Assembly (NCBI RefSeq): GCF_041886205.1
Contig: NZ_CP169029.1
From: Escherichia coli
GTDB lineage: Bacteria > Pseudomonadota > Gammaproteobacteria > Enterobacterales > Enterobacteriaceae
DNA: 64,000 bases
Strand: one strand, 5' to 3'
Part shown: positions 21,554-46,930 of the stretch, in pieces
Numbering within the stretch: position 1 is the first letter of the stretch
Layout of the letters: every line of letters starts with the position of its first letter
The notes under the pieces: model-generated
Databases searched by the model: none
The model's input: the letters and a program-made list of their open reading frames with translations, nothing else
Told to the model about the DNA's origin: nothing
Made by a program: the position numbers and the translations under genes

Positions 21554-22546
<993 letters not shown>

Positions 22547-22629
22547 TTAATGAACTTAATGATACAGCATTACAAAAACAATCGAAGTTTATAAAGATGA
22601 TTTCTGATTGACCAGCCCCCTACCCTACA

Positions 22630-22872
22630 ATGGTGATTAATTTTATTACTCGCGATGGAGATGATGATATGAATATATCATATGTGAATAGCAACAAAAC
22701 GACATCTTTACCTGTTGAGCTAGATGCACTAAATAATAAAGATATCTCTTATGCCAAAGATTTCTTTTTATACATAGAAACACAGTTAAAAATTGCAAAA
22801 GATTTTTTAGACCTGGAGAAGAAGTATCAAGTTCTATTGCAAGTAAAGTTTTTCACGCATTTATTGATTTAG
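22630..22872 (+). CDS. Small hypothetical ORF in AT-rich aphA-tyrB spacer (yjbS-like position)
   Basis: 80-aa ORF in very AT-rich DNA; identity not recognised. Confidence 0.3.
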   Translation: MVINFITRDGDDDMNISYVNSNKTTSLPVELDALNNKDISYAKDFFLYIETQLKIAKDFLDLEKKYQVLLQVKFFTHLLI

Positions 22873-23373
22873 TTAACAAAATCAGGGGTAAGAAAGACTT
22901 TATGTATATTTGCACGCTTTGCTGTTTTGCCGAGGAGGTTAAAGGTGATTATTCTCATTACAGGACCTTTTTATTTGATATTGGTAATCAATATAAGGTT
23001 AAACTTACACAAAGCGGAAAAAAGAGTTCTCTTTAACATTAGAATTTAACGATACTATAATTGAATCTCAGAAAGTCACAGGCAATAAGGCAAAGCATAT
23101 TCTTGAGGATATAGAAATATTCTATCGTAACAAACCCGATACTTATTATTAAATTTAATAATGGTTAGATGTGCAGAAATTATTACTCCACCCAAAAAAA
23201 CAGGATAAGGAATTCCAGATAATTGGGATAAACTTAACAATAAAAGAACTAACAACGTTTATTATCTCTCACGTAGAACGATGGCATCAAAAAAATCATC
23301 TATAAAGAAAGAGTGAAAGCGACGACAGTTTAATTTCACTGCAGGCTGGGTAGCTCCAGCCTGCTTTCCTGCA

Positions 23374-28974: not shown

Positions 28975-30012
28975 TTAACGCTTATCCGCCACCAGTTTGA
29001 GCGCGTGTTCCAGCACATTAATGTCTGCACCCGCTTTATGGGCATTTTCACTTAAATAACGCCGCCACTGCCGCGCGCCAGGAATACCCTGGAACAAGCC
29101 CAACATATGCCGGGTAATATGACCGAGATACGTCCCCTGGCTGAGTTCACGCTCAATGTACGGATACATGGCGCGCACTACCGCCACCGGATCGGCATCG
29201 ATATCCGAGGAACCAAAGATCTCCCGGTCTACCGCCGCCAGAATACCCGGATTCTGATACGCCTCGCGCCCGACCATCACGCCATCCATATGTTGCAGGT
29301 GTGCTTTGGCCTCTTCCAGCGACTTGATACCACCGTTAATCGACATTGTCAGATGCGGAAAGTCACGCTTCAGTTGATACACACGCGGATAATCGAGCGG
29401 CGGGATCTCACGGTTTTCTTTCGGACTTAACCCCGAAAGCCAGGCTTTACGTGCATGGATGATGAACATCTCACACTCGCCTTTGCCGGAAACGGTGTTG
29501 ATGAAATCGCAGAGAAATTCATAGCTGTCCTGGTCGTCGATGCCAATACGCGTTTTCACCGTCACCGGAATCGACACCACATCGCGCATCGCTTTCACGC
29601 AGTCGGCAACCAGCTGCGCATTACCCATCAGACACGCACCAAACATGCCGTTCTGCACCCGGTCAGACGGGCAGCCGACATTCAGGTTGATCTCATCATA
29701 TCCACGCGCTTCTGCCAGCTTCGCACACTGCGCCAGCGCCGCCGGATCGCTACCGCCGAGTTGCAACGCTACCGGATGTTCTTCTTCACTATACGCCAGG
29801 TAATCACCTTTACCGTGAATAATCGCCCCTGTAGTTACCATTTCAGTATACAGCAACGTATTGCGGGAAAGCAGACGCAAGAAATAGCGGCAATGTCTGT
29901 CCGTCCAGTCGAGCATAGGAGCAATGCTAAACCGAGAATTCCAGTAAACACCAGTTTTTTCAGGCATCACGCTGGTTTGATTAATTTTTTGTGTTTCATG
30001 ATTATCGTGCAT
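28975..30012 (-). CDS. dusA: tRNA-dihydrouridine synthase A DusA; 5' end abuts the prophage integrase
   Basis: Dus-family TIM-barrel flavoenzyme; alternative start at 29967 would give 330 aa; the extreme 5' end is probably supplied by the integrated element. Confidence 0.9.
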
Positions 30013-30100
30013 TTTTGAACATTTCAGGCTATTTTTCTCGCGTTAGGTTCCCGCACAGGTTCCCACGTTTTATGGGAACCCGAAATAACGAGGTCGTGTA

Positions 30101-31198
30101 ATGGCGTACTATAACATAGAGAAACGACTAAAATCCGATGGCACACCACGCTATCGCTGTAATGTGATTATCAAAGAAAAAGGTGTTATCACTTACAGGG
30201 AAAGCAAAACATTCCCTAAACATGCTCATGCCAAAACATGGGGCACACAGAAAGTGATGGAATTAGATCTATATGGCATTCCATCATCAAATGCAGTTGA
30301 CGGACTTACAGTCCGTGACTTACTACACAAATATTTAAATGACCCAAATGCCGGAGGTAAAGCAGGCCGTACTAAAAGATATGTGCTAGAACTGCTTATG
30401 GATAGTGACATCTCCGCGATCAAACTATCTGAACTGACAGAAAATGACGTAATTGAACATTGCAGGCTAAGAAACAACGCTGGCGCAGGTCCAGCAACAG
30501 TCAGCCACGATGTTAGTTATCTTGGTAGTGTTCTGGATGCGGCCAAACCTGTATACGGAATTAATTACACATCAAACCCGGCGAAAAGTGCTCGTCCATA
30601 TCTACTTAAACTTGGTTTGATTGGTAAATCAAACCGTCGTAATCGTAGACCAGCATCTGATGAACTGGACATGCTCATTGAAGGCCTTCAACAACGATCT
30701 ACTCATAAATGCTCAAAAATTCCGTTCGTTGATATCCTCAAATTTTCTGTGTGGTCCTGTATGCGAATCGGAGAAGTATGCCGGTTACGATGGGAAGATC
30801 TCGACCAGGAACAAAAATCTATACTCGTAAGAGACAGGAAAGATCCACGCAAAAAGGAAGGCAACCACATGAAAGTAGCCTTGCTTGGGGAAGCCTGGGA
30901 TATCGTCCAACGACAGCCCCAAAAATCGGAATTCATTTTTCCATATAACAGCACTTCTGTTACTGCGGGATTTCAGAGAGTAAGAAGCAAATTAGGTATT
31001 AAGGATCTGCGATACCATGATTTGCGTAGAGAAGGGGCAAGTCGCTTATTTGAGGCTGGTTTTAGTATTGAGGAAGTCGCCCAGGTTACAGGGCATCGTT
31101 CATTAAACGTGCTATGGCAGGTATATACCGAACTGTATCCGAAATCTTTACATAATCGTTTTGAAGAGCTCCAAAGGAGCAGAAATAAGATCCCTTGA
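30101..31198 (+). CDS. int: Tyrosine site-specific integrase (dusA-targeting type)
   Basis: 365-aa ORF with C-terminal catalytic region (HDLRREGASR ... LWQVYTELY); first phage gene next to the dusA 5' end. Confidence 0.8.
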   Translation: MAYYNIEKRLKSDGTPRYRCNVIIKEKGVITYRESKTFPKHAHAKTWGTQKVMELDLYGIPSSNAVDGLTVRDLLHKYLNDPNAGGKAGRTKRYVLELLMDSDISAIKLSELTENDVIEHCRLRNNAGAGPATVSHDVSYLGSVLDAAKPVYGINYTSNPAKSARPYLLKLGLIGKSNRRNRRPASDELDMLIEGLQQRSTHKCSKIPFVDILKFSVWSCMRIGEVCRLRWEDLDQEQKSILVRDRKDPRKKEGNHMKVALLGEAWDIVQRQPQKSEFIFPYNSTSVTAGFQRVRSKLGIKDLRYHDLRREGASRLFEAGFSIEEVAQVTGHRSLNVLWQVYTELYPKSLHNRFEELQRSRNKIP

Positions 31199-31511: not shown

Positions 31512-31570
31512 GCACTATCGGAAGTTCACCAGCCAACCGCAGCACGTTTTTGCATACAACGTGCCTGCGG
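31512..31570. repeat. Repeat copy R1 (about 60 bp, hairpin plus T-run; acts as dinI-like terminator)
   Basis: gcactatcggaagttcaccagccaaccgcagcacgtttttgcatacaacgtgcctgcgg followed by ttttt; about 90% identical to 34181-34240. Confidence 0.7.
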
Positions 31571-31731
31571 TTTTTCGAGACTATTCTGACCGTCATACTT
31601 ACACATCAACTTAGCGCCCATCCAGAGAAATTATCTTTTTTGCATTCCGAAGATTCAAAGAGTTAGCCTAATTTTCCAGATAGTTTTCTCGACAAATCTG
31701 AGGTATTTTGGTTATCGATATAGTGCTTTGG

Positions 31732-32788
31732 GGCTTTGTTGAATAAATCAGATTTCGGGTAAGTCTCCCCCGTAGCGGGTTGTGTTTTCAGGCAATACGC
31801 ACGCTTTCAGGCATACCTGCTTTCGTCATTTTGTTCAGCGCTCGTACCAGGGCCATAGCCTCTGCAACCTGACCATCGTAGTCACGCAGCGTCAGTGAAC
31901 CCCCGAACAGCTGTTTTACCCGGTACATCGCCGTTTCCGCTATCGAGCGACGGTTGTAATCTGTTGTCCATTTCCACCGCGCATTACTCCCGGTCATTCG
32001 CTGATTAGCCACTGCACGGTTACGGTCTGCATATTCACCGGGCCAGTAACCCGCACCTTTTCGGGGAGGGATAAGCGCGCTGATTTTCTTACGCCGCAGT
32101 TCATCGTGACATAGCCGGGTATCGTAAGCGCCATCGGCGGCGGCTGACCTGATTTTCCGGTGGGTTTGCCGGATTAACCCGGGGAAGGCCTCTGAGTCCG
32201 TAACGTTGTTCAGCGACAGGTCAGCGCAGATGATTTCATGTGTTTTACTGTCAACGGCGAGATGCAGCTTACGCCAGATACGGCGGCGTTCCTGGCCATG
32301 CTTTTTGACTTTCCACTCGCCTTCACCGAAGACCTTCAGCCCGGTGGAATCAATTACCAGGTGTGCGATTTCACCCCGGGTGGGCGTTTTGAAACTGACA
32401 TTAACCGACTTTGCCCGCCTGCTGACACAGCTGTAATCCGGGCAGCGTAGCGGAACGTTCATCAGAGAAAAAATGGAATCAATAAAGCCCTGCGCAGCGC
32501 GCAGGGTCAGCCTGAATACGCGTTTAATGACCAGCACAGTCGTGATGGCAAGGTCAGAATAGCGCTGAGGTCTGCCTCGTGAAGAAGGTGTTGCTGACTC
32601 ATACCAGGCCTGAATAGCTTCATCATCCAGCCAGAAAGTTATGGAGCCACGGTTGATGAGGGCTTTATTGTAGGTGGGCCAGTTGGTGATTTTGAACTTT
32701 TGCTTTGCCACGGAACGGTCTGCGTTGTCGGGAAGATACGTGATCTGATCCTTCAACTCAGCAAAAGTTCGATTTATTCAACAAAGCC
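31732..32788. mobile_element. IS903-group insertion sequence (IS5 family), 1057 bp, apparently intact
   Basis: 18-bp terminal inverted repeats ggctttgttgaataaatc (31732-31749) and gatttattcaacaaagcc (32771-32788); flanked by 9-bp direct target duplication gtgctttgg (31723-31731 and 32789-32797). Confidence 0.9.
31788..32756 (-). CDS. IS903-group DDE transposase
   Basis: 322-aa ORF filling the IS; motif DSTGLKVFGEGEWKVKKHG typical of IS903/IS102 transposases; true start may be internal. Confidence 0.85.
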   Translation of the reverse strand: MKDQITYLPDNADRSVAKQKFKITNWPTYNKALINRGSITFWLDDEAIQAWYESATPSSRGRPQRYSDLAITTVLVIKRVFRLTLRAAQGFIDSIFSLMNVPLRCPDYSCVSRRAKSVNVSFKTPTRGEIAHLVIDSTGLKVFGEGEWKVKKHGQERRRIWRKLHLAVDSKTHEIICADLSLNNVTDSEAFPGLIRQTHRKIRSAAADGAYDTRLCHDELRRKKISALIPPRKGAGYWPGEYADRNRAVANQRMTGSNARWKWTTDYNRRSIAETAMYRVKQLFGGSLTLRDYDGQVAEAMALVRALNKMTKAGMPESVRIA

Positions 32789-32843
32789 GTGCTTTGGCTG
32801 AGGAACAGCATTAAATTCAACCATTTTATTCATAGGGATTAAA

Positions 32844-33848
32844 ATGCAAGATACAGACGTTTACGTATACATAGGCGATGTTCACCGCTCTGGTCATCAC
32901 GACATCACCAAAGCGATTAAAGAAAGAAAAACTAACCATGGTTTACAAAAAAATGTTCTTTTTTGCGTCGCTACCTATGGCGGTGATCCCAGCGCAGGAT
33001 ATAGAATTGGCCGCGCTTTGCAACACAACTATGAACACATCACCGTTCTAGTTGTTGGCCCTTGCAAAAGTGCTGGAACCTTGATGGCTGTCGCCGCTCA
33101 TAAGCTCGTGATTGGTGATATGGGTGAGCTTGGTCCTCTAGACATCCAACTTAAGAAAAATGATGAGATCGGCGAATTGAGCTCGGGCCTTGTTATCGCA
33201 ACGGCGATTGATGAAATAAAAGAGTGCGCTATTTCGACCTTTAGATCATACGTACTTGATATAAAGTACAGAAACCAAATTAGCACGAAGATGTCTGCAG
33301 ATATTGCTGCTAAGCTTACTGAAGCAATCATATCGCCGATGGCCTCACAGATAGACCCCATCAAACTCGGGGAGCATCAACGAGCAATGAACATAGCGCT
33401 TTCCTATGGGGAGCGTTTGAATAGTCACTCGAAAAATCTTAAGGAAAGCTCCTTAGGCAAGTTGATCGCTGGATATCCAGCCCATGGTTTTGTGATAGAC
33501 CGTAAAGAGGCGAGGGAACTATTCAACCATGTTGAGAGTCCTACAGACTTTGCAGCCAACCTGTACGAAGTTCTTGGTGAGATGATTTCGTCAGGCGAAA
33601 TCTCTATCTTCGACAAACCGGTGATTAAAGATTTAACTCCTAAAAAACAATATGAAACAACTAACGCAGAGGAAGATTCCCATGACAACAGCAGAATTCA
33701 GGAAGGAGATGAAATCTCTGACCAAAATTCAGGAAGAGCAGAACCGCCAAGGGATGAACCTGTCCAGGGAAGCGATGGAAAACATGCGGAAATTGAAGAA
33801 GAGGCTGGAACCTTACCAGCAGAGCAACCAGATGAAGGCACTCAGTGA
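32844..33848 (+). CDS. Orphan ClpP/crotonase-fold serine peptidase-like protein (S49/SDH-like) with acidic low-complexity C-terminal tail
   Basis: 334-aa AT-rich ORF with SD (aggga) 8 bp upstream; core ...VATYGGDPSAGYRIGRAL...VVGPCKSAGTLMAVAAHKLVIGDMGELGPLD resembles Clp-fold peptidases; last ~70 aa rich in E/D/Q; family assignment from memory only. Confidence 0.55.
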   Translation: MQDTDVYVYIGDVHRSGHHDITKAIKERKTNHGLQKNVLFCVATYGGDPSAGYRIGRALQHNYEHITVLVVGPCKSAGTLMAVAAHKLVIGDMGELGPLDIQLKKNDEIGELSSGLVIATAIDEIKECAISTFRSYVLDIKYRNQISTKMSADIAAKLTEAIISPMASQIDPIKLGEHQRAMNIALSYGERLNSHSKNLKESSLGKLIAGYPAHGFVIDRKEARELFNHVESPTDFAANLYEVLGEMISSGEISIFDKPVIKDLTPKKQYETTNAEEDSHDNSRIQEGDEISDQNSGRAEPPRDEPVQGSDGKHAEIEEEAGTLPAEQPDEGTQ

Positions 33849-33869
33849 ATATTGTAGTTTCTGATTGAG

Positions 33870-33901
33870 GACCTCGGCTACTACGCCGGGGTCTCTTTTT
33901 A
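33870..33901 (+). terminator. Intrinsic terminator after the peptidase gene
   Basis: gacctcggc-tactac-gccggggtc hairpin followed by tctttttaca. Confidence 0.6.
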
Positions 33902-34180
33902 CATCACTGGGCAGTCATCAAACTCCGCATTCCTAGCATCGTGATGATGTACGTGATTGCTCCGAATATTGAGTGTGAGTAATTGTAGCCACCACCATCA
34001 TCTGGCAGTGCTTCCGTTCTCCAGATTTATCAGGTGGGACTAAGGATGAGTACGATATCGCTTAATCCTGAAACTCCATTTCAGACAGGGACCCTATTAC
34101 AGACCGAAAGACCACAGATAAGTAGTTTGTTCATAAATTAATGCGTAGAATCAATAACGGCTGGAAATCATTCAATACTC

Positions 34181-39713: not shown

Positions 39714-40792
39714 CAGAACGGGTCCTCCTGTACTCTGGCTTTTTTCTTTTTCCGCGCGCCGGGGTCTTCAGGTTCAGGCAGATAAGCATCAGGCGGGCCG
39801 ACACGGATTTCCGTCAGGGTGCCGTTCTGGTCCTGAGTAAACGTGACTTCCGAAACAAGCAGTTCGGTATTTTCGAAACCACAGACCGGATCAAAGACAA
39901 TCACCCGCTGGTTGGGCTGCCACAGCGTACCGTTACCCTGTCGCCAGCCCTGCACCACATAGGTGGTTTCATCCGTCCGCGCCGCCCGTTGTCGGGCTTC
40001 AAAGTCCGCACGGGCAATACAGCCTGCCCCCGTAGCCTGCCCTGTCTGCCTGATATACATCGGACGGTAACGGGCAATAAATGCGTCCTCTGTGCGGGCC
40101 CGCAGCGCGGTGGTGGTGGCCTCACCGAAATCATCGTCGTTTCCGGCACGCTGCCCCGCCACCTGGTAAACAGAAAACCGCTCCCGGATACTCTTCTCCG
40201 TATCGCAGGAAAGGATGTTTTCCCCAAGTACCAGCGCGGTATGTGCCCGCGTTGAGCCAATACCGCCAATCACCAGCCTGCCGTGCGGGTCGTCATAAGC
40301 CAGCGCCTGCTGCTGACCGAGTATTTTGTTAATCACCTCGATCACCGTTTCACCGTGATCAGGCTGGACATCAGGAATAACACCCGACGGCGCACCGCTG
40401 TTCACCACCTCAATACCGAAGGGCGCAGCAAGCGCCTGCGCAATCTGTACCAGTGATCGTCCGTTAAACTGTGTCGGTTCGGCTGCACAATCAATCAGGT
40501 CAGCGGTCAGACTGCGTCCGGCAATACCGGTGCTGACCGAACGGGCATCGTAACGAACGGGCGTCGCCTCCACCCAGCCGGTGATCACCAGCTCATCACC
40601 AATCAGCACCTCCACTTTTGAACCGTTTTTAATGCGCGGCTGAAGCATGGTGATACCCTCATCACCCGGCCACTGGCGAGTGATCTCCACACTGAAATCC
40701 CGCGCCAGCCGTTCAATACCGGCACCGATGCGCACCGATGTCCAGCCATTCCACTCCCGGCCATTTACCCGTAGCGTGACATTGTCGTTCAT
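39713..40792 (-). CDS. Baseplate hub / tail protein (Mu P-like)
   Basis: 359 aa; follows DNA-circulation-like gene. Confidence 0.55.
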   Translation of the reverse strand: MNDNVTLRVNGREWNGWTSVRIGAGIERLARDFSVEITRQWPGDEGITMLQPRIKNGSKVEVLIGDELVITGWVEATPVRYDARSVSTGIAGRSLTADLIDCAAEPTQFNGRSLVQIAQALAAPFGIEVVNSGAPSGVIPDVQPDHGETVIEVINKILGQQQALAYDDPHGRLVIGGIGSTRAHTALVLGENILSCDTEKSIRERFSVYQVAGQRAGNDDDFGEATTTALRARTEDAFIARYRPMYIRQTGQATGAGCIARADFEARQRAARTDETTYVVQGWRQGNGTLWQPNQRVIVFDPVCGFENTELLVSEVTFTQDQNGTLTEIRVGPPDAYLPEPEDPGARKKKKARVQEDPF

Positions 40793-42162
40793 TGCACTGG
40801 CACCTTCAGAGGGATCACCGGCACAAAGCCGGGATGCGTAATGGCATTACGCCGGATAATGTCCGCGTCACGCGCCGCGTTATCAAACCAGGTCGCTGCC
40901 AGCACCAGCGCGGGTAAAACCTCATCCGGTGTGCGCTGAATGATCCGTGCAGACTGTTCAAGGCGCGTGTTGATATCCGCATTCAGATCTGCTTTCACCC
41001 GGCGCAGCGCCAGAAACAGCGCATCACTGGTTGTACGGGACAACTCCTTATCAATTGCCGTATTCAGTGTGTCGCGAATGTCAGTCAGTTCTTCCCACGT
41101 CGGCAGGTCAACCGTGTTTTTCACCGCCGGTGCATTGTTCAGTGCCGGATGCGTGACGGAAGGCCAGCCAGTGCTCTGCGCGGGTGTTGTTGCCTGCCCC
41201 ACTGCGGAATTCTGCATCACCGCGGAAGTTGTTGGCGCAGGCAATCGGGTGACGGCATACGCCGCTTCGCTGATTGCGGTCGTACGAAGGGTGCTGGCAA
41301 CCACGTTACGCTGCTGCGTAGCCGTGGCGGTGGTTTTACTGTCCGTTTTCCAGACGCCGCGCGGTTGCAGATCGCTGCCGAGGCTGACACCGGAAAGCGT
41401 TTTGATCATGGTGACCAGGTCGCTGGCGTTACCATAAAGGCGTTTCCCGGTACGCCACATTTTCTGCACCTGCTCAACGAAATTTTTGCCTGACGATGGC
41501 GGCGGCAGAAGTACCGAGATATCCCCCTGTAACAGCCTGGCGGCATCCGATACGGCAGAATCCACCACTTTCATCGCATCAGAAACATACCCCAGCATTA
41601 TGCTGGCATTACCGATAACGTCGTTCTGCACGAAATCCGCCACACCATCGATACTGAAACCGCTGAAGCTGTCACTGATGCAGTCATCCAGTGCAGAACA
41701 GGATGACATCAGCGTCTGCGCCGTCGCCGCACCTGATGTGGGGTAAGAGAGCTCTCCTGCTTCGACAAACTTCAGGTCAAAGCGGACAATACGTCCTTCA
41801 CTTTTCGATGTGCTGACCCGAACTTCCCCGTCAACACAGACTTTCAGCTCACCGTATGTCGGATGGACAAGCGTGCCGGGACCGGGTTTATTCAGCGCGT
41901 CAATCAGGCGATCGCGCTGGTCAAAACAGTCATCTCCCACCACATAAGCCGTGATGGACGGGCGGAAAGTGATTTTCCCCAGGTCTTCGGTATAGGGTTT
42001 GTCGCGGTTCGGGTATTCATGTGTTTCTACACGGCGACCGGTTCCCGCACTTTCTTCTTCAACCTTAAACGGCACACCTCGAAATGATGCTTCAAGTAGC
42101 TTTTCACGCCAGCCACTTCGAGAATCAGAGGATAGGTACGAAGAAATATGAGAAAAATCCAT
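40789..42162 (-). CDS. Mu N-like DNA circulation / tail protein
   Basis: 457 aa; position between tape measure and baseplate hub. Confidence 0.5.
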   Translation of the reverse strand: MDFSHISSYLSSDSRSGWREKLLEASFRGVPFKVEEESAGTGRRVETHEYPNRDKPYTEDLGKITFRPSITAYVVGDDCFDQRDRLIDALNKPGPGTLVHPTYGELKVCVDGEVRVSTSKSEGRIVRFDLKFVEAGELSYPTSGAATAQTLMSSCSALDDCISDSFSGFSIDGVADFVQNDVIGNASIMLGYVSDAMKVVDSAVSDAARLLQGDISVLLPPPSSGKNFVEQVQKMWRTGKRLYGNASDLVTMIKTLSGVSLGSDLQPRGVWKTDSKTTATATQQRNVVASTLRTTAISEAAYAVTRLPAPTTSAVMQNSAVGQATTPAQSTGWPSVTHPALNNAPAVKNTVDLPTWEELTDIRDTLNTAIDKELSRTTSDALFLALRRVKADLNADINTRLEQSARIIQRTPDEVLPALVLAATWFDNAARDADIIRRNAITHPGFVPVIPLKVPVQ

Positions 42163-42218
42163 GGCGTCACCTCAAATAAAAACCGCGTGTAAACGCGGTT
42201 TTTTATTAGGTAATAAAA

Positions 42219-42707
42219 TTAACGATCATAATCAACATTATGAGTATCTATTCTACATGATGAATAAGTAATTCCGCTTTCACCACTAATATTTACGCCA
42301 GCCTTTACCTTCCCTGTTTTCGTAACATCAACAAAGAATTGCCCTCTTGGCATTTTAAATGCAAAAGAGAAACCAATAATTTCCGAGTCAAAGTTATTTT
42401 CATCCTCACTAATTGGTACAATAAAAGTCAATGGTGCAGATTGTGAGTTATTTTCAAAATCAAAAGCACCAATGCTTTTATTAAACTCGTAGGATGCTTT
42501 TTTTATTAAAAGAGTTCCACTTGCCGACTTTGCTGGGCATATTACATACAGTCTATTTATTCCCTCTACATCTAGATCTATATTCTTATCCGCTGAAGTT
42601 TTAACGTTATCTATAAAGTATGTAGCAAGCTGCTTTTCCGTTACTGGCTTCGCAAAGGAGTTTAATGGCAGTCCTACAGCCAACAACAATATAAACATTT
42701 TCTTCAT
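42219..42707 (-). CDS. Secreted small protein (moron) inside the tail operon
   Basis: AT-rich ORF with signal peptide MKKMFILLLAVGLPLNSFA; own terminator hairpin downstream (42170-42200); start taken at Met-12 of ORF-track frame. Confidence 0.6.
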   Translation of the reverse strand: MKKMFILLLAVGLPLNSFAKPVTEKQLATYFIDNVKTSADKNIDLDVEGINRLYVICPAKSASGTLLIKKASYEFNKSIGAFDFENNSQSAPLTFIVPISEDENNFDSEIIGFSFAFKMPRGQFFVDVTKTGKVKAGVNISGESGITYSSCRIDTHNVDYDR

Positions 42708-42771
42708 ATTCTCTCCTACATTCAGCACAAACTTTACCACTCAATAACCCTACTTGATTAAAGTAGTTATA

Positions 42772-44673
42772 TTATCGTCTGAATGGAGAATACCCCACAT
42801 CGTGCGTGATTTTCATCAGGGGATCGGCTTTGCCCGGTACATCAATTATCTTCATACCTGGCGGAGCATTCTCGAACGTGACTTTCAGCTCGCTGTGCTG
42901 TGTCATGGAAGAAGATGGATTCAACAGCGGAACATTGGGTTTGTACTGACTCAGGCTGGCCTGATACTGCTCGTACTCTTTACGATCAAAAAAAGGCGTC
43001 CAGTCTGAAGCCAGAAACAGCCCTTTATTATCCAGCCAGTTAACCGTATCTTCAGGAACAACACTTTCCAGAGTATCTTTAACCGGCTCATACATCAGGG
43101 TTCCCAGAAAACCATATACCCCGGCCTTCCCGATAAAGCCGCGCCCTTTCCCCATCAATCCCGTTTCTGCCGATACCTTCCCCAGCGTACGCATCTCTCT
43201 GGTCACTGCGGTAATGGATTTGGTAACGTCAGCAACCCATTTGGTTGCCATAAACAGGGCAATCGCTTTCAGAACAGTTTCCCATCCCCCCATCGCCTGC
43301 GCCGTTTCATCCACCACGTGCCAGACTTTTTTTATGACAGGACCTACGGTTTCCCAATTATCAATAATGAGGTAAGCGCCACCAACCAGAAGAGCAATCA
43401 GCCCCTTAGCAGGCGTCATATTCATCACACCGCCGAGAACTTTCATGATTCTGGACAAAGAGCCTGCAGCGGCCCCCACTGTCAGTAAAGCCAGACCGAT
43501 TTTAGCAATGGTCTTAACGAGCTCCGGGTTTTCACGGACAAACGTTCTCACTTCCTCAAGGAGCGGTTTTACCGCTTCAAGACCATCATTAACCTCAGGA
43601 AGAAACGTTTCCCCCAGAGTGGAAGAAATGGCATCAAGTTGATTTTGCAGAAGTAAAAGCTGGTTTTCCGTCGTCGCTGCCCTCGAAGCATATTCCTTCT
43701 GCATCGAACTGCCATACTGCTGGGAATCCGCAACCCGCCTGAAGTTGGTACGCAACAAATCAAGGTTAGTCAGCAGAGGTGCTATCGCGCCCAGAGACTC
43801 TTTCCCGAACAGGGCATTCAGCACAGCTGCCTGTTTTTCTTTAGGCACTTTAGACATCGCATCCAGTACAGACAGCATGGTTCCCCGGGCATCTTTCTGC
43901 ATATCAGCAGCTAATTTCTTCGGATTGATCCGCAGAAAACGTAATGCCTGTTTCTGCGATTTTGTCGCGGAATTTCCCGCGGTCAGGGAAAGCATGAAGT
44001 TCTTGATCCCTGTGGCGGCAATTTCTGACTCCACGCCCATCCCGGCAATGGTTGCCCCCATTGCCGCGATTTCGCCGGAAGCCACACCTGCAACACCACC
44101 TAAAGGACCAATACGCGTAACAATATCGGAGATTTTCTTCGCATTCGCCGGACCGGTATTACCAAGGTAGTTGATTTTGTCAGCCAGCCCGGCCACTTCA
44201 TCCTGCGTCATATTAAACGCAGTACGCCACTGGGCCATCATCTGCCCGGACTCTTCAGCCGTGGTATCAAAGGCCACGCCCATCTTCACCGCATCAGTGG
44301 CAAACTGCATCAGTTCATCACGTGCAATCCCGGCCTGACCGCCAGCCGCCACAATTTCCGCGATCCCGTCTGCAGACATGGGAAGCTCAGTAGACAAAGC
44401 GCGTACCTGCTCCGTCATGGCCTTAAACGCATCCGGCGTATCCAGACCGTCCACCACTTTGCGGACATCAGCCATCTTCGATTCAAGGGTGATGGCTGAT
44501 TTTACAGGGAGTGCCAGTGCCCCCATTATTGCAGTACCCGCCCCGGCAGCGCCCAGAGCAAGGCTGGAGACTTCTTTCTGAAACCCCTTAAGCTGACGCT
44601 GCATACCTTTAAGCGGGCCGGATAGCCTGTCAACGGCGGTGATGATGGCTTTCAGCTGAAAATTATCAGCCAT
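42772..44673 (-). CDS. Tail tape-measure protein
   Basis: 633 aa, Ala/Gly-rich alpha-helical; after tube and chaperone genes. Confidence 0.75.
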   Translation of the reverse strand: MADNFQLKAIITAVDRLSGPLKGMQRQLKGFQKEVSSLALGAAGAGTAIMGALALPVKSAITLESKMADVRKVVDGLDTPDAFKAMTEQVRALSTELPMSADGIAEIVAAGGQAGIARDELMQFATDAVKMGVAFDTTAEESGQMMAQWRTAFNMTQDEVAGLADKINYLGNTGPANAKKISDIVTRIGPLGGVAGVASGEIAAMGATIAGMGVESEIAATGIKNFMLSLTAGNSATKSQKQALRFLRINPKKLAADMQKDARGTMLSVLDAMSKVPKEKQAAVLNALFGKESLGAIAPLLTNLDLLRTNFRRVADSQQYGSSMQKEYASRAATTENQLLLLQNQLDAISSTLGETFLPEVNDGLEAVKPLLEEVRTFVRENPELVKTIAKIGLALLTVGAAAGSLSRIMKVLGGVMNMTPAKGLIALLVGGAYLIIDNWETVGPVIKKVWHVVDETAQAMGGWETVLKAIALFMATKWVADVTKSITAVTREMRTLGKVSAETGLMGKGRGFIGKAGVYGFLGTLMYEPVKDTLESVVPEDTVNWLDNKGLFLASDWTPFFDRKEYEQYQASLSQYKPNVPLLNPSSSMTQHSELKVTFENAPPGMKIIDVPGKADPLMKITHDVGYSPFRR

Positions 44674-44757: not shown

Positions 44758-45081
44758 TTAATTTCCAGAACCACGCGACATTGTAGAATCGCTTCCGGAG
44801 GTCTCTTCCGTCTCCAAGCCGGTAAAAAAACGCATTACAATCATGCCTGCCTTGAAAATATCCAGCTTCGTCATCTGCGCTGCAGACGAGCGCGGGATCC
44901 CGGCCAGAAGCGGGATATATTTCAGCGCTACCTGACTGTCCATTTTCATACCACCATCAGGCGAAACAGAGAAAGGGAACCCCAGCGCCTCAATCTCGTC
45001 ATACGTAGGCTCACGTATTTCCAGCACATGCAGTGTTTCTTTGTGGGCGATGATCGGTTTTTTAAGTACAAGCTCAATCAC
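44758..45081 (-). CDS. Tail assembly chaperone
   Basis: 107-aa ORF between tube and tape measure. Confidence 0.5.
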   Translation of the reverse strand: MIELVLKKPIIAHKETLHVLEIREPTYDEIEALGFPFSVSPDGGMKMDSQVALKYIPLLAGIPRSSAAQMTKLDIFKAGMIVMRFFTGLETEETSGSDSTMSRGSGN

Positions 45082-45434
45082 TGGTAATCCCCTTCTTCAC
45101 CGTGGAACTCAAGATCAACCGTACCTTCTTCGGCATTATGGTTCGCTTCGCCGTGCAGCCAGGCTGACGACAATACATAGACCTGACCGTTCGCCAGCTC
45201 GGCAGTGATGGTCATCTCATCAGACGAGGTGATTTTGCTCACCGGAAAATTCTTCGGCACCTTGAAGGTCCCTTTGACATAAGGCGCACGGTGAGTTTCC
45301 TTGCGGTCCACTGAACCGTCCAGGCCGATGATGTCATCATTGACCGTCCTGTTCATGGGCACCTCAATGCCGCCGGTCAGCGATAGCTGCTGACCGTCAA
45401 TTTTGAAATAACAGGTTCCCCCGATACGGGCCAT
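45078..45434 (-). CDS. Tail tube protein
   Basis: 118-aa ORF immediately after sheath gene. Confidence 0.6.
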   Translation of the reverse strand: MARIGGTCYFKIDGQQLSLTGGIEVPMNRTVNDDIIGLDGSVDRKETHRAPYVKGTFKVPKNFPVSKITSSDEMTITAELANGQVYVLSSAWLHGEANHNAEEGTVDLEFHGEEGDYQ

Positions 45435-46930
45435 TATGCAGACTCCTCTGAATACTGAAGACGGAACTGGTTAACCACGGCAAAGACACGCAACTGGTTA
45501 ACATAGTCAGGCGGGAACAGCGTGTTCAGGCGGTTCGGATCGCTGGCATCACGCTCCACAACCAGGTACTGCTTAAACAGTTCGTAGTTTTCCACGATCC
45601 CCGCACGCTCAAGCTGACGGTAGGTTGCCAGCAGTTCCCCTTTGATTACCGCCGGAGTGACAATCGCCTGACCGGGACCAAAGCGGGTACCGTCGCTGGC
45701 AAGCTTGTGACGCCCGTACTTACTGGTAATGACGGATTTCAGTTTGCGCAGTACATACGCACTGGTATGCAGCGTCTCGCTGTCGAGGTAGCTGTTATCC
45801 GCAACCCCGTAAGCATTTTTCCTGTACGTGGTGACATCACGCTGAATGCGCAGCACCCCGCTTTCGACATACGCCGTTGCCACGCCATGAGACAGCAGGG
45901 TCTGTTGCTCGGTCATCGTGAACCGTTTCCCCTTCGGCGCAGGCAGCATCCCCACCAGCTCACCGGTCTGCGTGGGACGTGCCGGATCGTTGCGAATAAA
46001 CACAGCTGCGCGGGCGGTACGGCTTGCCGCCAGCTCGTCGGCTGGCGTCTGAGTGTCTTTTTCGTATCCCGCCAGGGTAATGTGCTGCTGGTTAAACTGG
46101 TCACCTGCGGTCACCAGTTCTGACAGCGTGCCGATCTTTGCCGTATACACATGACCATACAGCTGACGCGCATAGCTCCAGCGACCGCTGGTATCGTTCA
46201 TCTCGGTCACCAGCGTGTTAACGGAGGCCGTGTCGTTGAACGGCAGGCCGATATAATCAAACGGCTCATCCGCCATTGCAGCCACCGCGCCGGTGAGAAC
46301 AGGAGCGCCCGTTCCGGCGGTACCCGTCGCCACGGCAATCTGTACGCCCGCTGGCAGCACTTCGCCCCCACCAAAGCCGTAGTAATTGAGGCTGACAGGA
46401 ATTTCATTCCCGCAAAGCCCCTTATGACGCGCGGTCAGTGTGACCACGCCTGCCGAAGATGAGGCCGTAAACGGCAGGGCCGGAACGGCATTAATGGCAT
46501 CCTGGATACTGCTGGCAATCGTCGCGACGTTATCGCCGTTGGTCACCGGTGCCTGCACGCGGGTACGTCCCACATAAACATTCACCGTGCCAGTTTCGGT
46601 TGCCGCCCCGGTCACCGTCAGCGTAACCGTTGCCGCCGCGCCTGTGGCTTCCGGAACGGCAATCACATACAGCTCGCCAAACGGGTCGGTCTGGCGATAA
46701 GCCTCGACCATACGCGCCAGCTGACTTCCCGCACCACAAATCTGGCGTGCATAGTCTGCCGACGGCATCAGCACCAGACTGTTGGCAACAATCTCTGCAC
46801 CGTTATTGGCGTGACCAATCAGCAACGATGCCCCGCTGTCCTGTGCAGTATTCGCCGCCTGGTTATCCATTTCCGCATAAAACAGCGGAACCAGCGTATT
46901 CGACGGAATGGTGTTAAAGCTTATCGTCAT
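45434..46930 (-). CDS. Contractile tail sheath protein (Mu L-like)
   Basis: 498 aa; followed by tube gene. Confidence 0.75.
   Translation of the reverse strand: MTISFNTIPSNTLVPLFYAEMDNQAANTAQDSGASLLIGHANNGAEIVANSLVLMPSADYARQICGAGSQLARMVEAYRQTDPFGELYVIAVPEATGAAATVTLTVTGAATETGTVNVYVGRTRVQAPVTNGDNVATIASSIQDAINAVPALPFTASSSAGVVTLTARHKGLCGNEIPVSLNYYGFGGGEVLPAGVQIAVATGTAGTGAPVLTGAVAAMADEPFDYIGLPFNDTASVNTLVTEMNDTSGRWSYARQLYGHVYTAKIGTLSELVTAGDQFNQQHITLAGYEKDTQTPADELAASRTARAAVFIRNDPARPTQTGELVGMLPAPKGKRFTMTEQQTLLSHGVATAYVESGVLRIQRDVTTYRKNAYGVADNSYLDSETLHTSAYVLRKLKSVITSKYGRHKLASDGTRFGPGQAIVTPAVIKGELLATYRQLERAGIVENYELFKQYLVVERDASDPNRLNTLFPPDYVNQLRVFAVVNQFRLQYSEESA

Follow-up and report, generated by a model that had tools for sequence, protein, structure and literature searches.

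Between the tail tape-measure protein (TMP) gene and the Mu N-like gene of a contractile-tail module, in a prophage carried by a 64,000-nucleotide (nt) stretch of Escherichia coli DNA (hereafter the window, to which coordinates refer unless a locus is named), lies a short AT-rich open reading frame (ORF) at 42219-42707 that we label X. Here we report that X is an optional cargo gene (a moron, if the term is taken broadly) belonging to a small protein family without assigned function (PHROG 5586), and that its predicted product is safest described as a Sec-exported periplasmic calycin-like barrel, probably disulfide-bonded, without a characterised relative. Amongst the roles that such a protein could play we tentatively favour one that is possible rather than established: that X is a periplasmic superinfection-exclusion factor acting after adsorption on incoming related contractile-tailed phages.

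X is present in some copies and absent from other copies of one and the same tail module. Amongst 5,426 complete E. coli genomes in which the states of the TMP–N junction were counted, 213 carry the TMP type of the window. X is found in approximately 100 of these 213, and approximately 115 have a tight junction in which only 24 nt and no hairpin separate TMP from N; these tight-junction relatives share both genes with the window at 97-100% identity. A related N gene combined with another TMP occurs in 531 genomes, where the junction is cargo-less and holds a hairpin only; an unrelated AT-rich gene (PHROG 5485) occupies the same slot in approximately 178 genomes, and a second X allele (49% identity) in 11. 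An earlier sequence-only reading of this locus had proposed a moron interrupting a tightly coupled tail operon, and had named a conserved structural tail component, present in all related tail modules, as the finding that would speak against it. The 24-nt junctions bear out the interruption, and the absence of X from approximately 115 genomes with the same TMP and from the 531 with a related N means that it is not found in all related tail modules and is therefore an accessory gene. Since the slot can also be filled by the unrelated PHROG 5485 gene, the TMP–N junction is a cargo hot spot. This alternative cargo (in E. coli EC02, locus L006 4480-5010, a gene for 176 amino acids with an N-terminal membrane segment) resembles X in being AT-rich (31-36% GC for the two genes), in its position, in carrying its own hairpin and T-run and in encoding a hydrophobic N-terminal segment. 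The two are nevertheless unrelated in sequence, and the PHROG 5485 gene has a strong extended -10 promoter (TTGTAA-16-TGaTAGAAT) and a probable membrane anchor where X encodes a predicted cleaved signal peptide.

Comparison with the empty-site relatives also hints at how the cargo moves. Megablast matches to the tight-junction relatives end at ~42088-42094 and at ~42785, and within the segment so delimited the alignments and translations read GYSPFRR-stop against GYSPFRFPR-stop and MDFSHISSYLSSDSRSGWREKLLEA against MDLSSFPTRPSLLSSSSGWRDRLQDA. The differing segment thus reaches into the ends of both TMP and N, which suggests that cargo is exchanged by homologous recombination within these neighbours and not inserted site-specifically. 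In approximately 1,000 genomes with other TMP types similarity to the window ends at the same point of N, a recurrent mosaic breakpoint just inside this gene. The order TMP-X-N holds in 37 tail-module loci with a homologue, one of which has lost TMP by deletion, and the tail-module homologues are 34-53% identical between lineages. As homologues this divergent hold the same slot in diverged modules, X is not a recent one-off insertion. The locus that has lost TMP (L027 2793-4489) belongs to a defective prophage in which a deletion brings an Rz-like spanin gene directly up to the sequence that precedes X; the genes for head, sheath, tube and TMP are gone, and X, N and the baseplate genes are kept. 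On a short metagenomic contig (L042 2387-3423) a HIRAN-domain gene (195 amino acids) stands between TMP and a distant X homologue (P0020), forming a two-gene cargo.

Not all copies of X are intact; IS1-disrupted and truncated copies exist, and to judge from these the AT-rich cargo is an IS1 target and the gene dispensable. IS1 lies in the 5' end of the second allele, allele B, in an IMG/VR prophage (L037 3258-3984), and IS1B inside the X-matched region of E. coli PEC122. In-frame deletion variants of 155, 140 and 132 amino acids (P0002, P0003 and P0004, from ENA metagenome assemblies) lose parts of the region of strands 3-5, with short repeats such as ENN/FD seemingly bounding the deletions; slippage may have produced these variants, or they may be artefacts of assembly.

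The gap that holds X, 42163-42771, runs exactly from the start of N (42162) to the TMP stop codon (42772) in a contiguous minus-strand tail module ordered sheath, tube, chaperone, TMP, X, N and Mu gp44-, gp45-, gp46- and gp47-like baseplate genes (Table 1); PF07157 was found in the N proteins of homologous loci. RefSeq and GenBank list the 489-nt ATG form of X as a hypothetical protein; an alternative in-frame GTG at 42740 would give 173 amino acids but is without a Shine-Dalgarno sequence. We estimate at ~5e-6 the probability that 162 codons stay open by chance in DNA of 34% GC, and X is therefore a real gene. Its GC content is 0.342 (0.264 at third codon positions) against 0.504 and 0.561 in the flanks (1.4 kb on each side), and the 42-43 kb bin is the lowest in GC within the prophage, so that the compositional distinctness noted earlier is confirmed. 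Under the Juhala/Hendrix definition a moron has five features, namely an extra gene, distinct composition, its own terminator, its own promoter and expression from the repressed prophage (PMC3594210). X is an extra gene between adjacent genes, of distinct composition and followed by a terminator-type hairpin, and with three of the five features it largely qualifies as a moron on sequence grounds. The weaker part of the moron identification is the promoter, for which our scans yielded no significant site, so that X is unproven as an autonomous transcription unit.

The hairpin downstream of X has arms AAAAACCGCG-(loop)-CGCGGTTTTT at ~42178-42203 and lies 15 nt ahead of the N start codon. For the 66-nt stretch that bears it the folding energy is -20.4 kcal/mol (z = -4.9), a stability that no shuffle out of 200 reached. 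An A-run in front and, in RNA of the coding strand, a U-run give it the shape of a bidirectional terminator; a simple terminator scanner did not have it amongst its listed sites, and Rfam returned for it only Leu_leader and RNAI matches, all of them sub-threshold and reflecting the terminator shape. All X alleles at TMP–N junctions are AT-rich (GC 0.34-0.40), and every one of them has a GC stem and T-run 3' of the gene, the stem sequence being lineage-specific and the N ribosome-binding site following 10-15 nt further on. From one cassette to another the T-run, the ribosome-binding site and the N start are conserved whereas the stems differ. A hairpin of the same design, TCCCAC-TCCG-GTGGGA-TTTTTTAT, also stands just before the N ribosome-binding site at the cargo-less O157-type junction (L005 4418-4477, E. 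coli O157:H7 SS NE 1040-1), where it may have been left behind when a cargo was lost, or may act as a native attenuator within the late operon. The hairpin of the window may therefore belong to the junction and not to X alone: a strong hairpin with a T-run does follow the gene, as had been proposed, but its description as the terminator of X itself is qualified by this. At the other end of the gene, the imperfect palindrome directly 3' of the TMP stop is degenerate in the window and perfect (10+10, AACCCTACTT-taatc-AAGTAGGGTT) in two allele-A loci (L025 and L028); it may serve as an operator or form an RNA structure.

The N-terminus of X has the n-region, h-region and AXA-type design of a signal peptide for Sec and signal peptidase I (SPase I): MKK, with two positive charges, is followed by a hydrophobic core at residues 5-13 (mean Kyte-Doolittle hydropathy 3.1) and by SFA-KPV, without a lipobox cysteine. 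Eight full-length homologues keep the basic n-region, a nine-residue core (mean hydropathy 2.4-3.5), and an AXA-type site with a lysine directly after it, near residue 19-23, despite their sequence divergence. The signal peptide of allele B (P0007, locus L007 3626-4108, 49% identical) contains LTSC, a loose fit to a lipobox, and its product might be a lipoprotein, unlike that of the window allele, whose signal peptide has no cysteine. In the mature part two cysteines, Cys57 and Cys151, are conserved. AlphaFold2, run on a 10-sequence alignment, gave a confident model of X (predicted local distance difference test, pLDDT, 85.7; predicted template modelling score, pTM, 0.79) with a helix at residues 24-41 and eight strands, and low pLDDT over residues 1-20. 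Mature X, approximately 143 amino acids long, is thus predicted to consist of an N-terminal helix and an eight-stranded up-and-down beta-barrel. Cys57 lies at the end of strand 1 and Cys151 within strand 8 of the model, and a disulfide between the two probably closes the barrel, which would fit a soluble periplasmic protein.

Two of the checks suggested by the sequence-only reading, a signal-peptide analysis and a structure prediction, gave positive results, the latter as a confident barrel without a functional fold match. The term 'secreted' holds in so far as the SPase I-type signal and the two conserved cysteines predict export to the periplasm; of release from the cell we saw no sign. Foldseek against AFDB50 returned family members and then only weak lipocalin-like/DUF4251 matches that gave no functional clue, and a fold search of BFVD gave no match at E <= 0.001. 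PliC/MliC, avidins, the lipocalin-like DUF4251/DUF2147 and MoaF-like barrels match X at 4-14% identity, as is generic for the fold; X is no closer to PliC/MliC than to other eight-stranded barrels, and it differs from calycin-type barrels by its extra N-terminal helix.

X matches the PHROG 5586 hidden Markov model with E 7.2e-85 (residues 1-161 on profile positions 1-161 of 161). Searches of protein sets of 5.8 billion and 1.8 billion sequences recovered a small family only, of 148-176 amino acids and 26-53% identity; AFDB holds members from Salmonella, Citrobacter, Enterobacter and Pantoea, and the PHROG 5586 family is confined to Enterobacterales. Four representative HMMER matches (P0019, P0022, P0024 and P0026) proved on reading to be large repetitive proteins with summed low-complexity or repeat matches, and two weak matches to metagenome-assembled genomes of Bacilli/Firmicutes from a one-genome-per-species contig scan (26-28% identity over 80 residues) were taken as spurious. 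With Pfam, X and all 10 aligned members gave only a spurious pectate-lyase match at E <= 10. No literature was found under the protein accession of X or the name of phage vB_EcoM-720R4, the induced phage that carries a matching tail region.

Not all family members reside in tail operons. Distant homologues (26-29% identity) occur at three loci (L010, L040 and L041) on phage-plasmid-like contigs of Pantoea and relatives, outside tail operons, where their neighbours are a cI-like repressor, ParA, MazEF or HigBA, IncFII RepA and a RecA-dependent nuclease. The homologue whose composition was measured, that of L010, is not AT-rich (55% GC). Surroundings of this kind, with repressor, partition and maintenance genes, are usual for genes that are active in the carried state. 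As these homologues stand beside phage-plasmid repressor and ParA genes, the X protein does not need a tail operon, and we count their position near repressor, ParA and toxin–antitoxin genes as a link to lysogeny that favours an exclusion role.

X changes faster than its neighbours. Amongst ten distinct nucleotide alleles of the window type, segregating sites in X comprise 16 nonsynonymous and 5 synonymous changes, compared to 21 and 43 in N and 10 and 38 in TMP (Fisher p = 8e-4 for X versus N and 2e-5 for X versus TMP). Pairwise omega, taken over allele pairs of greater divergence, lies mostly at 0.6-0.9 in X, with one value of 2.2, and at 0.02-0.12 in N and TMP; between lineages X is 36-53% identical, TMP 49-75% and N 52-71%. 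The frame, the signal peptide, the cysteines and the barrel core are maintained across the X lineages. Diversifying selection on an interface would explain this rapid change, as would weak constraint on an accessory protein; with counts this small the two cannot be told apart.

The closest precedent in genomic position is gp15 of HK97, the product of a moron next to the TMP gene, which confers superinfection exclusion at the inner membrane in a manner dependent on the incoming tail (PMC3594210). HK97 gene 15 and X are both compositionally distinct extra genes that adjoin the TMP gene of a tail operon, and both encode envelope proteins; however, gene 15 lies upstream of TMP and X downstream, the two proteins (a small YebO-like inner-membrane protein and a predicted soluble periplasmic barrel, respectively) share no sequence similarity, and gp15 has a demonstrated promoter and phenotype whereas X is known from sequence alone. 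Precedents for the target come from T4 Imm, which binds TMP (bioRxiv 10.64898/2026.03.06.709160), and from Ltp of TP-J34, which targets TMP (Bebeacua 2013, as cited in PMC3952083). Both are envelope proteins of phage origin that stop DNA entry by way of the incoming TMP, which is the mechanism we propose for X, but Imm is described as a helical membrane protein and Ltp as a Gram-positive surface lipoprotein, neither of them a beta-barrel or a homologue of X. A block on phage DNA entry that is imposed from the periplasm is known from the HXS system (PMC13128918). Tab is a TMP-directed defence of the cytoplasm (PMC10884400) and a less apt precedent because X is exported.

A tblastn search of X against 50,697 phage records matched vB_EcoM-720R4 only, and X therefore has no detectable similarity to Sim of phage P1. 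Sim is reportedly a processed and exported superimmunity protein of a contractile-tailed phage that blocks infection after adsorption; it and X are both signal-peptide proteins of temperate myovirus-type phages, although their genomic positions differ.

If X is an exclusion factor, its action may be pictured as follows. Q-antiterminated polymerase reads through hairpins in lambdoid late transcription, so that X would be transcribed together with the tail genes in lytic growth. It would also be transcribed to some level in the lysogen, as the phage-plasmid contexts and the moron precedent suggest, and here the hairpin would keep X transcription out of N and the baseplate genes. The protein would act in the periplasm of the prophage-carrying cell, where the barrel would bind a component ejected by an incoming related contractile tail, either TMP or the tail-tip/hub complex, and this binding would block channel formation or DNA entry. 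The rapid amino-acid change of X would then reflect an arms race with incoming phage tails. A bolder version, which we hold to be rather doubtful, has the TMP–N junction as a dedicated slot for swappable envelope-acting exclusion cassettes and PHROG 5586 as a new class of soluble periplasmic barrels that would capture ejected TMP or the tail tip, TMP-linked and diversified by the arms race.

Several observations weigh against exclusion. Pfam, NCBIfam, PADLOC (no family at E <= 1) and sequence and profile searches of the PDB returned nothing, and X has no homology to any described exclusion or defence protein in PADLOC, PHROG, Pfam, NCBIfam or the PDB. High omega, insertions of IS elements and truncations are equally compatible with weak selection, and the divergence of X showed no significant correlation with that of TMP, the TMP C-terminus, N or the N N-terminus (Spearman rho 0.02-0.50; five lineages, which are too few). 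The hairpin occurs at the 531 cargo-less junctions too, and may be as much a feature of the junction as an insulator of the cargo. A consensus promoter scan upstream of X gave no site; the one candidate from a relaxed scan, TGgTAAAGT, has a score of 9 that approximately 25% of shuffles match and is not conserved across alleles, so that expression of X in the lysogen is something we infer. In locus L011, moreover, X begins 16 nt past the TMP stop codon.

The last of these points would suit a late lytic accessory that is made only from the Q-antiterminated late transcript and serves in the periplasm, for example by modulating lysis or excluding competitors late, without lysogenic conversion. X is co-oriented within the late operon, without a significant promoter of its own, and a hairpin that exists without cargo need not insulate a lysogenic transcript. 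We nevertheless think this unlikely: the distant homologues lie in phage-plasmid repressor and maintenance regions, away from late operons; approximately half of the near-identical prophages, some of them complete-looking, are without X, which is therefore not needed for the lytic cycle; and the PHROG 5485 gene, the other cargo found at this junction, is equipped with its own strong promoter. The frequent absence of X could befit a nearly neutral, decaying cargo that hitch-hikes with the tail module and has no current function, as could omega near 1 within the allele, the IS1 insertions and the truncated or internally deleted variants in the databases. Such decay is hard to reconcile with members only 26-53% identical that have kept the frame, the signal-peptide design, both cysteines, a motif-rich barrel core and a confident common fold, nor would an open frame of 162 codons at 34% GC persist without selection, and we regard it as improbable.

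A benefit to the host instead of a phage–phage role would make X a periplasmic inhibitor or ligand-binding barrel, for example a lysozyme/muramidase inhibitor akin to PliC/MliC or an immunity-like protein against toxins that act in the periplasm, aiding the lysogen in an animal host or in bacterial competition. The predicted eight-stranded periplasmic barrel and its conserved cysteines, which could pair as a disulfide, are in keeping with this, and a conserved SASG loop motif faintly resembles the SxSGAxY motif of PliC/MliC; carriers of X include pathogenic and animal-associated E. coli such as the enterotoxigenic strain H10407 and O111:H2. Yet no family member matches any Pfam family, MliC (PF09864) included, PliC fold matches do not outscore those to avidins, MoaF-like and designed barrels, and the carriers are spread over many hosts and sources without pathotype enrichment. 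As a host-benefit role also leaves the TMP–N position in every tail module unexplained, we give it little weight. That same position, conserved in several diverged tail modules, is what might suggest a structural or assembly component of the Mu-type tail. This idea is effectively refuted by the presence/absence data, X being missing from approximately 115 prophages that share TMP and N with the window and from 531 whose N is related; the Sec signal peptide moreover directs X out of the compartment in which tails are assembled, homologues sit in phage-plasmid maintenance regions and an unrelated gene can fill the slot.

The prophage itself is integrated beside dusA, with pspG and dusA followed by the integrase (~28975-31198), as in E. 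coli RM9088. Its tail region matches RM9088 at 99-100% and also matches the induced phage vB_EcoM-720R4 (ON470603). In the prophage a Mu-type contractile tail is combined with an HK97-type head, lambda-type lysis genes, a Q antiterminator and lambdoid regulation. The window and RM9088 are not collinear in the lysis-to-Q region (~54.9-59.8 kb), an instance of module mosaicism. A 2.6-kb island (31516-34120) between a DinI-like gene and the tail-fibre invertase is absent from RM9088; it holds an IS5-type transposase ORF and a second ORF that by eye looks like a ClpP/SDH-type serine protease. Outside the prophage, low-GC chromosomal stretches were seen at 8001-10000 (0.35-0.42) and 22001-23000 (0.375).

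Table 1. Features of the X locus and its surroundings, in window coordinates
Feature	Coordinates	Strand	Remarks
Cargo gene X	42219..42707, stop codon included	minus	162-aa exported-protein precursor; PHROG 5586
Predicted Sec/SPase I signal peptide	42651..42707	minus	codons 1-19 of X; MKKMFILLLAVGLPLNSFA-KPV cleavage junction
Shine-Dalgarno AGGAG	42713..42717	minus	7 nt upstream of the X ATG; read from the sequence
Extended -10 TGgTAAAGT, sole promoter candidate	42730..42738	minus	24-32 nt upstream of the ATG; relaxed custom scan
Imperfect palindrome AACCCTACTT-gatta-AAGTAGTTAT	42746..42770		directly 3' of the TMP stop
Terminator-type hairpin (A-run, CCGCG stem, loop, CGCGG, T-run)	42174..42208	minus	between the X stop and the N ribosome-binding site
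Variable segment relative to empty-site relatives	~42088..42785		last ~5 TMP codons, cargo, hairpin, first ~25 N codons
TMP gene (tail tape measure, 633 aa)	42772..44673	minus	upstream of X; PHROG 28, TIGR01760; annotated Mup42-like
Mu N-like DNA-circulation/baseplate-hub gene (457 aa)	40789..42162	minus	downstream of X; PHROG 184 and 17109; annotated Mup43/N
Sheath gene	45434-46930	minus	tail module
Tube gene	45078-45434	minus	tail module
Chaperone gene	44758-45081	minus	tail module
Island IS5-type transposase ORF	31788-32756	minus
Island 334-aa ORF	32844-33848	plus	possible serine protease

Many genomes and one isolated phage already list X under the annotation 'hypothetical protein'. The conserved slot, the alternative cargo and the fast evolution of X make it reasonable to test the gene by plating, but they do not make it surprising, and if it has no exclusion role it would be an ordinary uncharacterised moron. 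Should X indeed block DNA entry from the periplasm, a class of soluble beta-barrels would join the few tail-directed exclusion proteins, HK97 gp15, T4 Imm and Ltp, and the roughly 50/50 polymorphism of its presence and absence in E. coli prophages would provide natural test material. The census of the TMP–N junction defines a cargo hot spot that may be mined for further envelope-acting factors.

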